Assembly (NCBI GenBank): GCA_951406725.2
Contig: OX597831.1
Span: forward strand, 69,006,001 to 69,070,000
Length of the DNA stretch: 64,000 nucleotides
Source of the DNA: Octopus vulgaris
Taxonomy: Eukaryota
Direction of reading: 5' to 3'
The number at the start of each line of letters is the position of its first letter. Position 1 is the stretch's first letter. Positions 8,812 to 61,726 of this stretch are shown here, piece after piece. The position numbers were made by a program, and so were the translations under genes. Below the pieces are notes generated by a model, which had not been told where the DNA came from, did no database searches, and worked only from the letters and a program-made list of their open reading frames with translations.

Positions 8812-8892
8812 ATATAAATGTAGAGAGAAATTAGGATTAAAAGAAGGAAAAAGAAGAAAGTATAAGAAGAAAATAAATGTAAGATCCCTGGA

Positions 8893-8927
<35 letters not shown>

Positions 8928-9043
8928 TATATATGTGTATGTGTGTGTGTATATGTGTAAGATCCAGGGATCTTACATTTATTTTCTTTTTATACTTTCT
9001 TCTTTTTCCTTCTTTTAATCCTAATTTCTCTCTACATTTATAT
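8812..9043. repeat. inverted repeat, arms about 90 bp, around a CA/TG microsatellite
   Basis: atataaatgtagagag...gatccctggatcttacac is mirrored by gtgtaagatccagggatc...ctctctacatttatat. Confidence 0.95.
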
Positions 9044-18965: not shown

Positions 18966-21299
18966 GATAGGAAATATAGTTACAAATAAGAAGAATGTAT
19001 TCATGTATTCAACTTTTTAATTCAAGTGAAATTGCTGGGACTGATGTCACCCAGTGAATTAACTCATGAGTCCCTCCGCCCAAAGTTTTCTTCCTGTTCC
19101 ACTCCATACAGAATCCTTAGCAATGTTTTTGAACTACTATTACTCATAAATGCAAGCATATAATATAGCAATAATACCATTTCCCTAAGCTGTCCAGAAT
19201 TAGACATCTTGGCTATGAATGCAATACAGTACAAATGGCAGGATGTGGACCAGTAACATTGTTTGTGATTACCTGATATTTTAAATCTATATAGACAATA
19301 TAAATTATACATAAATCTTTATTCTGTTATCTCATTGAAGAAGAGATAAAATGTGTAAGCATTTAAGTTCATGCATTAAGATCATAGGTCTTGAGCTCAA
19401 ATTTAGTATAGTAATTTTGATGTCTGTTGGTAAAAATAGTTAATTCTCAATTCATCTAGTTGTCAGGACTAATTGTCTGATTTGATAGCTATTATAAACT
19501 ACTTTCCTTTTCAACAGTTATCTATATTCTACTTGGTACTATAAAAACGGAGCTCAGCACAAATCCTTGAATAATCTTCAAAGTTCTTGGAGATATTTAA
19601 ACTTATCTTCCTTGAGTCACATTTCAGAATTTTAGAGAAAGAAAATATTTTGTTATCAGCCATTGGGTTGAAAATTACTATCTTTTATTTAAATGGAATG
19701 AAATAAATAAATAAAGTTTTTTTTTCGTTAGTTTTCATTCTGTATTGTTAAATATTTCAGAAAGTCAACATCGTTTCAGACAAATGTCTAAATTTTCTAA
19801 ATTCTATTTACCAAATGATATTGATTTGCTTTCTTCCTTTTGAAAGTTTTTTCTATTTAGCAACATAACAATGTATTGTATGAATGTGAGGCTTGAATAA
19901 AACTTTGTTGATGATATTAATTGAATTTTAGTTGATAAAACTTCACAAACAGGCTCTTCTTTACAAAGATCTGTTTAGTAAAAATACCATTGTTTAATTT
20001 ATTCGATTTTTGAAATGTTTGTCTTCATATCAATATGAAATAAGAACAAAGCTTACATGAATACTTCTTTGAAATCTTAACTACTTATTTTAAAATAAGG
20101 TGTAAGTTTGAAACTTTATCTGAAAAATAGTATAATACAACATATGTTTACATATTAAATTTCTTTAGAAAAATAGGCAAGAAAGAAACAGTTTCACCTT
20201 ACTGTTTATCATTTCTTGTGTTGCCATGTTTCTGAAGTTTGAATTTAATTATCGAGGGATTCTTTGAAACTGTATTGAAACATAGTCGAAGCTGTATGTA
20301 TGCATTTTCTATTTGTATGTAACTAACACAAGTTAAAACATTAACTATATCAACAGAATTGTTGTTTACAGGACAATGAAAAATGTAAACTTATTTAGAC
20401 TGAACCATATTAAGAATGTTATCCTTAATTATACATTCTTCACAATTTTCCAGTGTCTTTATTTTAAATTGCCTTATCAATGAATAATTTTCATACAAAA
20501 ACCATATTCTGTCAAAACATTTTAAGATTTGGTAGTTGTGTTTCAATCTATGCTTCATTGAGGAGGTCCAATACGACTGAAACATGTCCAAAGTATTCAC
20601 ACTTATCAGAATCACTATCCATTAGTTATTTTCATTTGATTATTAATCAGTATAATTTCCCTCACTTGTAATAAATGCTAAGGAATTTTATTCTCATTCC
20701 AGGTATAATGTAAATAAAGTAAAAGATTTCTTTTGGAATAAGTTAACCAGCACTTAACTATATGTTCTTCATACAGATTACATCCCTAACAAATTTTCCA
20801 ATATTATTATTGAACAGTTTAGAATTTGATTAACTTTTAACTAAAGTTCCGACTTTAACAAAGAATCAAAGAAATCTAGAAGAATTCAAGTTATAGATTA
20901 CTTTTATTCCTTTGTAATTTTGATTCAGCTGAGATTCTAAAGATTTAAATGCATTGTTTGGAATATTTCAAAACTGATACCATAATGAAATAAAATGAAC
21001 AATGATTTCAGGAAACCTTTTCTTTATAATGTTTGTAACGTCAGATTTGTTTGGATTATTTTAAATTGTTTAGCAATATACAAGTGAAAGTGCATGGCAT
21101 ACAATCATAAGATTGTAGGTTCTGTTTTTCGTCCAAGACATGAAGTGTATTTCTTAGTAAGGTACATCATTTCATGTTGCTCCAGTCAACTTCGTTGTAA
21201 ATGAGTATTACCTTGGTGCTTGTCCAGCTTTCTTTTCCTCTAGCTGTCATATCCTTCCAGATGTGCCACAGTCTCAAAGGTAAGAAGACCAAGAAGATG

Positions 21300-21700
21300 C
21301 ATTGAGAACATTCGTTTCACCCCTCCCTTCTCTGAAGTCATCATCCTCACTGACTTCAATGCCCACAACTCCTTATGGCTATCACATTCATTTGGCTATT
21401 GGAGCCAAAGCTAAATCCTTTGCTTTTCTCAACTCTTTACACAGATACCAAACCATCCGACAGACTTTCCAAACACTCTTGATCTCTTTTTATATCTCTA
21501 AAGCTAAGACTTAAATGGTAACCTTCTTTGCCCATATTGGACATCTGATCACTGCCTTGTTATAAATACTCAACATACAATCACATAAAACACAACATTC
21601 CCATCCCTTTAGACCCTGTTGTCAGTTAACTGGTCAGATTTCCATCAGTTTCATACCATTTACACCTCAGACAGCAAATGTGATTCATGCTTGACTGATC
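21300..21700 (+). mobile_element. LINE APE-endonuclease relic
   Basis: LTDFNAHNSLW, NTLDLF and IGTSDHCL motifs across frames. Confidence 0.7.
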
Positions 21701-21789: not shown

Positions 21790-22460
21790 GTCACGCTAAT
21801 GGATATGAAAAGTGGAACGGCTATTGGGAGGTAACTGCAGATTTACCTGGGTGCCAGGTTTTCTTTCCTATCCCAGTTACGAAAACCAGATATTTTGATG
21901 TGGTTTGAAAGAAAGAAAGTTGTAAATATAGTCGAGCTAACGGTTCCTCATGAAGATAATATGGACGCCGCTCGGGCTCGAAAATTGAACCGTTATGAAA
22001 ACCTCCTCGAGGAATGTGAAGACGCAGGCTGGAAAGCGGAACATTTTCCTATCGAAGTCGGATGTAGAGGGTTTGTTGGACACAGCGTGAGACGACTGTT
22101 GTTATCGCTAGGCCTAACTCATCGTAAAGTCAATACCACCATGACTGATATCCAATCTACAGTGGAGAAGGCTAGCCACTGGATTTGATTAAAAAGAGAT
22201 GATGAGCGATGGCTAGAAGGATATTGAGCTTTATTTGATAACCAGCTGATCTAGCAAGCGGGGACTCATATCAGTGAGGGGGGCTGGTGCGCATTGATGC
22301 TGTCGAGAGGTAGGCCCCGAAACGGCGCGCATTCTCTCCTGATGACCCCATACACTTGCTAGCTTCCGGTATACAGAGCTTTTGACTGGTAGCACTTGCA
22401 TGTGCAAGTTGTTTGCAAGACATCGTACTGCAGTTGTTTGGGATAAAAATAACAGGATCT
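21790..22460 (+). mobile_element. 3' end of a HERO-like (R2 group) non-LTR retrotransposon with restriction-like endonuclease
   Basis: PDILMWFERKKVVNIVELTVPHEDN...RK..Y...GWKAEHFPIEVGCRGF...EKASHWI*LKRD; GC-richer structured 3' UTR. Confidence 0.85.
22286..22353 (+). ncRNA. rearranged (pseudoknotted) hammerhead-like motif in the HERO 3' UTR
   Basis: GCUGU-C-GAGAG...GAA-ACGGC...CUCUC-CUGAUGA: stems I and III pair around GUC; stem II is poor. Confidence 0.55.
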
Positions 22461-24382: not shown

Positions 24383-24723
24383 CTATTGAATATTTGGGCT
24401 GTAGGTGAATATTTAAACATCTCTCATCATCATGATAGAAATCATCATCCTCATCATCATCATTGTTTAGCGTCCGCTTTCCATGCTGGCATGGGTTGGA
24501 CGGTTCAACTGGGGTCTGGGAAGCCAGGAGGCTGCACCAGTTTCTACGGCTGGATCAGACTGGGCCTGGTGCAGCCTTCTAGCTTCCCAGACCCCAGTTG
24601 AACCGTCCAACCCATGCCAGCATGGAAAGCGGACGCTAAACGATGATGATGATGATGATGATGATTTCTATCATGATGATGAGAGATGTTTAAATATTCA
24701 CCTACAGCCAAAATATTCAATAG
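24383..24723. repeat. fold-back: 158-bp arms, 25-nt spacer
   Basis: 24383-24540 is the reverse complement of 24566-24723 with few mismatches; each arm is unique flank plus RTE 3' end. Confidence 0.95.
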
Positions 24724-38578: not shown

Positions 38579-39869
38579 TGAGGGACGTTCAATAAGTAAT
38601 GCCTCTGACCCACTTGCAGTTGTTTGATCTAGCTGAAATTTTAGATGTGCAATTATTTATATCTCTATAGATTAAGTGGCAAATTACAGCTCTGAACTAA
38701 TTGTGGTTCCTGATTTACAGGTGTTTGAACTGAGTCAAGTGTGAACTAGAGCCTGTTGAGTGTCGAGCAGTGATCCGGTTTTCGTATTTGAAAGGACGCA
38801 CACCATGGGAGACTTTTGATGAAATGAAAGTAAATTATGGTGATGATGCCCCATCATATGACCTTGTAAAACGCTGGCATCGTAAATTCAAACATGGTCA
38901 GAACTCTGTGGAAACAGCTCCCAGATCTGGTCGCCCCCCCTTCTGCCATTGATCAGGCATCTGTCTGTCAAGTTGAGGCTGCCATTTTGGAAGATCGATG
39001 CATAACTATTCGCCAAATAGCCCATGAGGTCAAGATTAGTACCGGGTCTGTGGAAACTATCATTCATGACCATTTACATATGCAAAAGGTGTCTGCCATA
39101 TGGATTCCCAGGTTGCTCACACCTTTCCAGAAGCAAGAACGCGTCGAGTGCTTGAGGATGAATTTGGAGATGTGCCAAGAAAATGAGTCAAATTTTTTCA
39201 AAAGTCTGATTACACAGGATGAAACCTGGGTCCATCACTATGATCCAGAGACCAAAGCCCAGTCAATGCAGTGGAAGCACCATGACGCCTCCTCCAAAGA
39301 AGGCAAGGGTGCAGCCCTCCACTGACAAGGTCATGCTCACAGTCTTCTGGGACCAGGACGGAGTAGTGATGACAGATTTCCTGGCAAAGGGTACCACAAT
39401 TACAGGAGCCTATTATGCTTCACTTTTGAGGAAATTAAGAGAAGCTATCAAAATCAAGAGGCGGGGCAAGATCAGCAAAGGCATCCTCCTCCTGCAGGAC
39501 AATGCTCCGGTCTACAATTCACGTGTCGCCAGATCAGAAGCACAGGCATGTGGCTATGAACTCCTCCCCCATCCCCCTACTCTCATGACCTTGCACCCTC
39601 TGATTTTCACCTCTTCCCAGCCATGAAGTTGTTTTTGAAAGGAAAGCATTTCCCAGATGATGCAGTTTTGAATTCTGAAGTCATGTCGTGGTTGGAGAAC
39701 CAAGCTGGGGTCTTCTACAAAAATGGTCTCCAGAGCTGCGTCAAACAGTGGGAGAAATGCATAACTCTGGGTGGTTCCTATGTAGAAAAAGACTAATAAC
39801 TGTGCCAAGTTTCGTTGCTCTACTGCTATGGGAAGTGGGTCAGGGGCATTACTTATTGAACGCCCCTCG
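38579..39869 (+). mobile_element. full-length mariner (DD34D type) with frameshifted transposase
   Basis: TA on both sides; 37-bp TIRs with 3 mismatches; WIPRLL, ITQDETWVHHYDPETK, LLQDNAP, YSHDLAPSDFHLF, end GSYVEKD*; three frameshifts, no ATG. Confidence 0.97.
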
Positions 39870-43325: not shown

Positions 43326-43387
43326 CCCCTTCATCAGCTGTCTCTAGTTCAACTCCAGCGTGTTTCGAAGGTGAGGACAGAACATGT
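43326..43387 (-). ncRNA. rearranged (pseudoknotted) hammerhead-like motif in a TA-flanked module
   Basis: Minus strand acaUGU-U-CUGUC-cucac-CUUC-GAA-ACAcgc...GACAG-CUGAUGA-a-GGGG; all three stems pair. Confidence 0.65.
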
Positions 43388-44723
43388 GTCGTCAAACTAG
43401 TCTTTCTTGCGAAAGAATTAAATAAAATTCCTTTGCAGAGGGGTATATGTATATATATATACACACACACACATATAACTGGGCAGTTATATATACATAT
43501 AACTGAGTTCATAGAGTTGTGTGTAAATGATTGGTTTTTGCAAAGACAAACTTCCCCTTAATGTAATTCTTTGGTAGAGCCAACATCACAATGTGCGATG
43601 AGGCTGGACCTTTAAATAACATGGAAAACCCATCGAATGGCCTTACCATTTCTGGTTACAAAATTTCACTCTCAAAGTATGGTTCAACCTGAGACTATAA
43701 AACTATACACTTGTCCAAGATACCATGTAGTGGAATTTAAATTTGGAATTAATGAGTACAAAGTGAGCCTTTTAATGATTGAGCCAGGCAACACCTACAT
43801 GATATATACATACACATTTACATAAATCACTTTGATTTATTTCAACAATATATTACTTTATAAGAAGTAGGTCTATATACCAATTACTTTCAGAACATGT
43901 GGCTATAAGATTTTAATGAAATTTTTTCATTTGTTATGTACCACCTACTTTATCCAAATTGTAACACAAATACAGCAACATCACTCTAGTAGTTTTTCAT
44001 TCAAGAACATGTGCAAATAAACGTATACAGCATATTAGGCTGATACACGTTGGCACAGTAACAGAAGAAAAACTCAAAGCTAATCTGATTCTGTTAGTTG
44101 CAGAATAATTGTTTTTATACACCTTCTAATATATACTTTGATAAGAGATTTTTAAAAGAATCTTGTCACTCTAATCAACCTTTTCAATTTCTTCTATATA
44201 CTATATACATTTTTGTATGTTTTACTAACTAGAATCTTGTCTGGGTGATTTTATATTATATTTTATAGAGCTTATGTTGCAAATACAATGAGCTCCTTGT
44301 TTATTAATTTCTTTTGAACAATATTGCTTGATTTTATTTCAGCTTATGTAATATTTAAGCTGCTCTTTGCAGTACTGTCAAATAAGTGTTACTTTTGTAA
44401 GAAGATAACCATTGATTATTTTTCACAAACAATTAAAGAAATCGATACCTGAATAGGCAACAAAAATCAGGGAATCTTAAGTGTATTTGTATAATGTGAA
44501 AATGTTTCTGTTGTGTGACAATATTTCAAAAAAATTTTTATCATTTCTGAATGTATATTTGCTTATTTGTGAAAATATTGCAAAAAAAGTGCTTGAAAGG
44601 TAATTGCATCTATCTCAGCACACTCAGTTTGAAATGGGTACTGAGGCTAAGTAATTAATCTTCTGGTTTTTATTATAAAATTTGGATTGTGTGTGTGGGT
44701 GTGAGTGCATGTGTGTGATTATG

Positions 44724-54974: not shown

Positions 54975-55050
54975 TTGCAAAGGGAAGCCATCCTTCCCAT
55001 CCTCAAGCTGACATGATACTGAAGATTGGAAGGATGGCTTCCCTTTGCAA
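54975..55050. repeat. perfect 23-bp inverted repeat, 30-nt spacer
   Basis: ttgcaaagggaagccatccttcc / ggaaggatggcttccctttgcaa. Confidence 0.95.
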
Positions 55051-61477: not shown

Positions 61478-61726
61478 AAATACAGTGTACATTTAAACAC
61501 ATAAGAGATGGCCATAACAGGATATCTGACCCACTAGAAGGAGTAGTTAAACTCTAAACCACTATTAGGGGTAATTTCAAAAGGGAATGGAAAATAACAT
61601 TTGTTTTTATTTTTCATTCCCTTTCGAAATTACCCCTAATAGTGGTTTAGAGTTTAACTACTCCTTCTAGCGGGTCAGCTGTCCTGTTATGGCCATCTCT
61701 TATGTGTTTAAATGTACACTGTATTT
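61478..61726. repeat. near-perfect fold-back, arms about 120 bp, loop about 10 nt
   Basis: aaatacagtgtacatttaaacac...ggaatggaaaataa is mirrored by ttatttttcattcc...gtgtttaaatgtacactgtattt. Confidence 0.97.

Follow-up and report, generated by a model that had tools for sequence, protein, structure and literature searches.

A hammerhead core whose blocks run in the S-G-C order of the type SGC hammerheads lies in the 3′ UTR of a HERO-like retrotransposon in the window (the 64-kb stretch of Octopus vulgaris DNA analyzed here), and comparative sequence analysis leads us to predict that a four-way junction built with an upstream strand takes the place of its stem II. The motif is real and conserved, and in vivo activity of the predicted ribozyme is likely. 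More broadly, we see a slightly better than even chance that HERO-clade LINEs across animals replicate via an RNA circle, which the new four-way-junction hammerhead would cut and rejoin and on which an R2-type protein would prime internally and roll past its start; these elements would then be protein-coding, retrozyme-like LINEs, with a ribozyme architecture common to unrelated elements.

The host element

According to the initial annotation, the 3′ UTR of a HERO-like, RLE-type element holds a hammerhead-type motif in rearranged order, and this placement is borne out by the truncated copy that holds the motif (Table 1) and by the RT/endonuclease frame of an intact relative. The motif begins 23 nt past the stop of the truncated copy, and the usual element 3′ end falls after GCAAGACATC. 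The intact copy (L064) is a 3738-bp unit with a 1175-codon RT/endonuclease frame (RVT_1), whose protein has R2 proteins as its best PDB sequence matches (E 1e-17). An alignment shows PD..ELTVP.E and zinc-knuckle motifs, which we take to be the marks of the C-terminal restriction-like endonuclease of a HERO-type protein. The element thus has a single ORF with an RT and a C-terminal restriction-like endonuclease, and it is not tied to a single target gene, its flanks being dispersed, AT-rich and (TA)n. The HERO label is drawn from characteristic motifs, dispersed insertion, elimination and the description in the available excerpts of PMC4640811, rather than from a reference HERO tree. Pfam searches returned no match for the ORF fragment in the window or for the reading frame after the HERO-like copy.

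The 2.8-Gb genome yielded 2446 first-look candidates for this family and 494 exact matches to a 31-nt core, and relatives of the element occur in fish, lancelet and marine invertebrate assemblies. One subfamily (L284, L287, L288 and L289) is very young, its 3′ ends differing at 0–2 of 900 bases. The structured region has many internal deletions, which often lie between the two GGGGCC tracts or remove sequence across hairpin B and look as though the polymerase skips folded segments. Just upstream of the window copy, 21244–21414 holds part of a LINE of the apurinic-endonuclease type (Pfam Exo_endo_phos_2, E 4e-4, below the cut-off).

Table 1. Coordinates of the HERO-like copy, the predicted ribozyme and the second motif in the window.
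Feature	Position	Strand	Remarks
5′-truncated HERO-like RLE non-LTR copy	21805–22424	+	about 620 bp; blastn 95.6% to unit 3120–3734 of L064
ORF-end remnant (restriction-like endonuclease region)	21835–22227	+	premature stop 22186–88; family stop 22225–27
Outer helix	CUAGCAAG 22251–58 / CUUGCUAG 22355–62	+	
Helix A	GGGG 22260–63 / CCCC 22346–49	+	
Hairpin B	22264–79	+	loop AUCA; links helices A and C
Helix C	GGGGCU 22280–85 / GGCCCC 22313–18	+	5′ strand is the displaced stem-II partner
Helix D	GGUGCGC 22286–92 / GCGCAUU 22327–33	+	equivalent of the type SGC helix joining stems I and II
Stem III	GCUGU 22299–303 / ACGGC 22322–26	+	one U-G pair
Stem I	GAGAG(G) 22305–10 / (U)CUCUC 22333–38	+	
Core letters	GAAA 22319–22; CUGAUGA 22339–45; GUC triplet 22302–04	+	C17 = 22304
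Block S	22299–22310	+	stem III 3′ strand, GUC triplet, stem I strand; predicted cut 22304/22305
Block G	22313–22333	+	GGCCCC, GAAA, stem III 5′ strand, helix D 3′ strand
Block C	22334–22362	+	CUCUC, CUGAUGA, helix A strand CCCC 22346–49, outer helix strand
Predicted cut to usual insertion end	22305–22424	+	120 nt; equals the short stand-alone copies
Second motif	43326–43443	minus	predicted cut 43381/43380; triplet GUU

Core and pairings of the motif

All pairings proposed in the initial annotation are present in the sequence. The window copy has the full hammerhead core (CUGANGA, GAAA and an NUH triplet), and a strict S-G-C descriptor run over both strands of the 64 kb matched only the motif at 22251–22362 and a site at 43381; a minus-strand reading of the former region gave no core. 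Folding energy showed no excess stability over shuffled sequences (z −0.27; pseudoknots lie outside the model), and Rfam searches returned no hammerhead hit for the motif region, both as expected of a doubly pseudoknotted strand order. The full unit likewise matched neither a hammerhead nor an HDV model of Rfam. Helices C and I have zero probability in thermodynamic folding because both are pseudoknots. We rejected the explanation of a long hairpin arising by chance because the helices covary across relatives.

Stem II is predicted to be replaced by a four-way junction

In the initial annotation stem II was regarded as defective in this particular copy, where CCCC faces CCCC. This turned out to be the state of the whole family: among the 30 best-scoring genome copies, a sample biased toward resemblance to the window copy, CUGAUGA followed by CCCC is present in 30/30, GAAA in 30/30 and GGCCCC before GAAA in 27/30. 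The GUC triplet is kept in 24/30. To take the lack of stem II in a family consensus as a refutation, as the initial annotation had suggested, would have wrongly discarded the finding. A direct stem II of at least 3 pairs occurs in 0/25 family copies with the core.

Both C-tracts of stem II instead pair with a single upstream strand that the first reading had overlooked, forming helices A and C. Helix A, hairpin B and helix C follow one another in this order and pass at once into helix D with no linker bases, so that the core and helices A, B and C form a perfect four-way junction. The first pair of hairpin B is intact in most copies and disrupted by A22264 in the window copy. In place of the pairing between the stem-II strands of a standard hammerhead, which is not found here, we therefore predict that helices A, B and C act as substitutes.

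Covariation in metagenome relatives

Searching with the endonuclease ends of ten proteins yielded 79 metagenome loci (from the best 80 of 224 candidates), of which 41 contain the core with stems I and III under the strict descriptor. Of the remaining 38, judged by eye, 8 are too short, 18 keep the motif in a form altered by point changes or deletions, and in 12 it is absent from the 330 nt examined per locus. Five RLE relatives (L171, L177, L157, L189 and L204), with about 39% in the ORF, have no motif behind the ORF and are possibly losses or a sister clade.

Adding four sequences from the genome itself to the 41, the A-B-C chain is found in 41 of 45 cores, with zero linkers in 37; shuffles of the upstream strand contain it in 55/900 (zero linkers) or 140/900 (one base of slack), i.e., 6–16%. 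The sequences form 25 clusters with a mean identity of 55%, in which each of the six helices varies in its pairs, with three to five types at most positions (the first position of stem I and the third of stem III, for instance, have four each). While the descriptor imposes the first 3–4 pairs of each helix, positions past its minimum generally still pair, at about 80–90% overall and in 22–23/25 clusters for stems I and III; some helix assignments are doubtful, those of L147 and L163 being probably wrong alternatives. Helix A is 7–14 bp long with altered letters in most relatives, and position 11.1 is opposite G in 23/23 clusters with the chain. Only 3/25 clusters could form the first pair of a direct stem II; the other 22 lack it.

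The core is kept throughout the 25 clusters. The cleavage triplets are GUC in 10, GUA in 9 and GUU in 6 (position 17 is never G by construction of the descriptor), and C3/G8 is present in the 25 clusters; L132 and L134 have U3/G8. A kink-turn-like motif ends stem III in 16/25 clusters, a feature not seen in the window's family; kink-turns are typical protein-binding elements. L150 and L164 have a UUGACAA core, i.e., a U3-A8 swap of the catalytic C3-G8 pair, which also occurs in natural hammerheads according to the available excerpts of PMC3088659.

Short copies begin at the predicted cut

We used a pattern for copies lacking the bases 13–19 nt upstream of the predicted cut, which gave 43 matches; four of these are internal deletions or indels, and the other 39 were examined. 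Of them, 28 are 5′-truncated within −12 to +29 of the predicted cut, and 10 of the 28 start exactly at GAGAG (the equivalent of 22305), with at most 3 starts at any other position (p 5e-10 compared with uniformly spread starts). With a second pattern, one further copy starting at the site came from the first 30 of 72 matches listed. The cut-start copies are about 120 nt long, have unrelated flanks and belong to at least two subfamilies, and two of them carry target duplications (9 and 17 nt) that end exactly at GAGAG. Self-cleavage of the motif is likely, given how many short genomic copies have their first base right at the predicted cut, and we read the peak in the window's family as an indirect sign of cleavage in the germ line. 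A polymerase pause appears to be a poor explanation of the peak, since every helix with the downstream strand should already be unwound at that point.

Among unselected copies, about 2 of the first 100 of 510 matches listed start at the predicted cut, so that most templates are intact there. The related family B (GUA triplet) shows no truncation peak (about 2 of 25–30 truncations, by eye, in 73 matches), and neither does the family of the 43326 motif (GUU triplet; 2–3 of about 50, by eye, in the first 100 of 391 matches).

We rejected the possibility that the short copies are one self-amplifying SINE, as they differ in subfamily variants and flanks. A T precedes GAGAG in 11/13 cases; we make no claim of non-templated addition, since T precedes many other truncations too and the T of L210 is part of the target duplication. 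A handful of indels at the cut site in family copies were considered as a mark of template jumping.

Insertions are arranged tail-to-head

In 23/23 matches to the sequence just upstream of the ORF, two of which are one duplicated locus, this sequence is preceded by the element's own 3′ end at an identical junction with no added bases. The upstream repeats extend past the ribozyme cut in 19/23 and start at it in 0/23. They range from 25 bp to 1973 bp, the latter being the longest among the 14 examined, none of which has two full laps; the median second-lap length is about 310 bp. Insertion 3′ ends cluster a few bases from the tail-to-head junction, about 120 nt downstream of the predicted cut, and some continue into the first bases of the unit (L043, L056). 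In L065, the two repeats differ from each other at 2/896 sites and from each of 9 other copies at 11 or more. The other nine loci in this comparison gave no clear-cut signal, and in L286 and L290 the repeat is slightly nearer to other copies than to its own end.

In the metagenome set, 8/20 long loci have the order ribozyme-then-ORF or terminal overlaps, with the core just before the ORF start; the overlaps may partly be collapsed short-read assemblies of tandem copies. No RNA data set was among the sequencing runs listed for the element. The tail-to-head joint is present in 4/4 contig sets; that these derive from RNA is conjecture, and tandem copies in the genome would yield such a joint too, so we do not count it as evidence.

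These ends bear on the function of the motif. The suggestion that the ribozyme defines the template 3′ end for insertion is not supported, because inserted copies end about 120 nt past the predicted cut, which marks the 5′ boundary of short copies instead. The more general proposal of a processing role other than that of the 5′ HDV-like ribozyme of R2 is supported.

Proposed mechanism and alternatives

Our preferred explanation, to which we assign a probability of about 0.6, is that the SGC-ordered ribozyme cuts at GUC|GAGAG and that the resulting unit-length RNA, rejoined to a circle or nicked circle, is copied from an internal start. Read-through or multimeric transcripts would be cut at successive ribozymes to give a 3.74-kb monomer running from GAGAG through the tail, 5′ UTR and ORF to GUC. 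Its ends would be religated by the ribozyme or a host ligase, or else crossed by an exact jump while stems I and III hold them together. Target-primed reverse transcription would begin internally, at the GCAAGAYAT junction that lies 120 nt past the cut; the terminal hairpin at 22395–408 is a candidate priming signal. On a joined template the enzyme would pass the cut site and might begin a second lap, leaving partial tandems; on a cut one it would run off after 120 nt, leaving short copies. A template that is mostly continuous across the insertion end and the cut site, and sometimes broken at the cut, would be the simplest account. As to its parts, that the predicted ribozyme cleaves seems highly probable to us, and that the template is a circle or nicked circle reasonably so. 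A scheme of tandem-precursor cutting and circles has been proposed for Penelope elements and retrozymes (available excerpts of PMC8557442; bioRxiv 10.64898/2026.07.22.740005). Counting against our explanation, the hammerhead literature searched holds no active precedent for a large insertion between A9 and stem II.

An active ribozyme could also serve a linear template, slowly trimming the 5′ ends of read-through from tandem donors in the manner of R2, with the tandems inherited or made by end-to-end template jumps. Such trimming accounts for the 120-nt copies, tandem donors exist, and the second-lap lengths resemble those of ordinary truncated copies, as a fresh start would give. R2-type enzymes, moreover, jump between templates. 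What makes this account unlikely in our view is that 0/23 ORF-start copies begin at the upstream cut while 19 pass it, that the junction is the same without extra bases in 23/23, and that truncation would shorten inherited repeats in each round with nothing restoring them; the private variants shared by the L065 repeats point the same way, though a single donor could yield these as well.

We consider it improbable that the motif is a hammerhead-derived but non-cutting fold that binds protein or positions priming, the peak then being a pause or a transcription start site. The lack of a peak in two other families, the fact that most cDNAs cross the site and the kink-turn-like motif in 16/25 clusters would suit such a fold. 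It would leave unexplained why every catalytic letter has been retained, along with the NUH triplet and the C3-G8/U3-A8 swap, and why the peak falls on one nucleotide that was predicted beforehand, at a point where helices with the downstream strand are already unwound. There is only a very slim chance that cleavage occurs solely as a dimer or in trans, with the strands of two units or RNAs making a conventional stem II. Head-to-tail copies do put several motifs on one RNA, and the minimal hammerheads of Penelope elements act as dimers; however, the strand after CUGANGA is not complementary to that before GAAA in any copy, so a second copy supplies no stem II either, and both stem-II strands have covarying partners in cis.

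Further motifs and repeats

The initial annotation had pointed to the same strand order at 43326–43387 in an unrelated element, and the second motif does lie in an unrelated repeat. This repeat has 1850 candidates with no recognizable ORF within 1.5 kb, and the same four-way junction, with the chain CCC(C)U / CUGC..GCAG hairpin / GAA(GG) in 15/25 loci and no direct stem II in the loci examined; the window copy has an altered stem III and helix C. Family B (L110–L115) is HERO-related and more abundant, with 33–35% to the ORF end in 2/6 loci, and has the same architecture, its 3′ UTR being longer and its hairpin B having a GAAA loop. L119–L125, L127 and L129 represent at least five more repeat families in S-G-C order, the stem-II partner again being upstream in L120/L121; most of these families do not resemble the HERO protein and are perhaps of the Penelope type.

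Elsewhere in the window, near-perfect inverted repeats around microsatellites or short spacers (8869–8986, 24512–24594, 61545–61659 and 54977–55048) have weak miRNA-family matches, all below the Rfam cut-offs, and are probably MITE-like or fold-back repeats. A 151-codon frame at 38870–39325 with a weak helix-turn-helix match is probably a remnant of a DNA transposon.

Relationship to known systems

Type SGC non-circularly permuted hammerheads (HRIMA-1 and variants) were described by Eckert et al. 2023 (PMC10085705), and as presented in the available excerpts of that paper they share with the HERO motif the S-G-C order, every letter of the core, stems I and III and a helix that connects stem I to stem II on their far sides; the S-to-G linker, typically 3 nt there, is GUA here. 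Unlike in type SGC, where CUGAnGA runs straight into stem II, as Eckert et al. assumed in all of their searches, block C of the HERO motif is interrupted, with the partner strand upstream and helices A and B inserted. Moreover, their motifs are 50–80 nt long and come from metatranscriptomes, with none in the genomes of known organisms, whereas the HERO motif sits in chromosomal retrotransposons.

Penelope-like elements and retrozymes, to judge from the available excerpts of PMC8557442 and bioRxiv 10.64898/2026.07.22.740005, resemble the HERO-like element in their partial tandems (a truncated copy before a full one), a hammerhead within the repeat, a (TA)n bias, and the tandem-precursor cutting and circular intermediates proposed for them. 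Their hammerheads are of type I, unlike the HERO ribozyme. The proteins also differ: Penelope encodes a telomerase-like RT with GIY-YIG, and the HERO protein is an R2-related RT with a C-terminal restriction-like endonuclease, so the HERO-like element is neither of the Penelope kind nor noncoding. PMC8557442 defines LINEs as elements without terminal repeats; it also notes that Naiads have hammerhead cores matching none of the descriptors, and these may be related to the HERO motif.

With R2, as described in the available excerpts of PMC13580325, the element shares a single RT/RLE frame and a ribozyme that frees, or in the HERO case would free, element RNA from a longer transcript; unlike the 5′ HDV-like ribozyme of R2, the HERO motif is a hammerhead that lies behind the ORF and, in a tandem or circle, also before it, and the element inserts in dispersed sites with the insertion end 120 nt inside the RNA. 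It agrees with the HERO clade in being RLE-type and mostly not target-specific, while the available excerpts of PMC4640811 mention neither a ribozyme nor a terminal repeat in that clade. We found no report of four-way wiring, ribozymes, circles or terminal repeats in HERO elements in the literature covered; papers behind subscription, Repbase Reports and the supplementary files to PMC10085705 and PMC8557442 lay outside this scope and could bear on novelty.

This young element encodes a relative of the R2 enzymes that are now employed for gene insertion, and internal priming on circular RNA by an R2-type enzyme would, if confirmed, be practically useful. If our reading is true, the motif represents a hammerhead architecture that the assumptions of published permutation searches had excluded, and non-circularly permuted hammerheads would be present in thousands of copies in animal chromosomes. 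The old hypothesis of a circular template for Penelope would become testable in a young, intact element, and two textbook rules for LINEs, namely the lack of terminal repeats and priming at the RNA 3′ end, would be broken.
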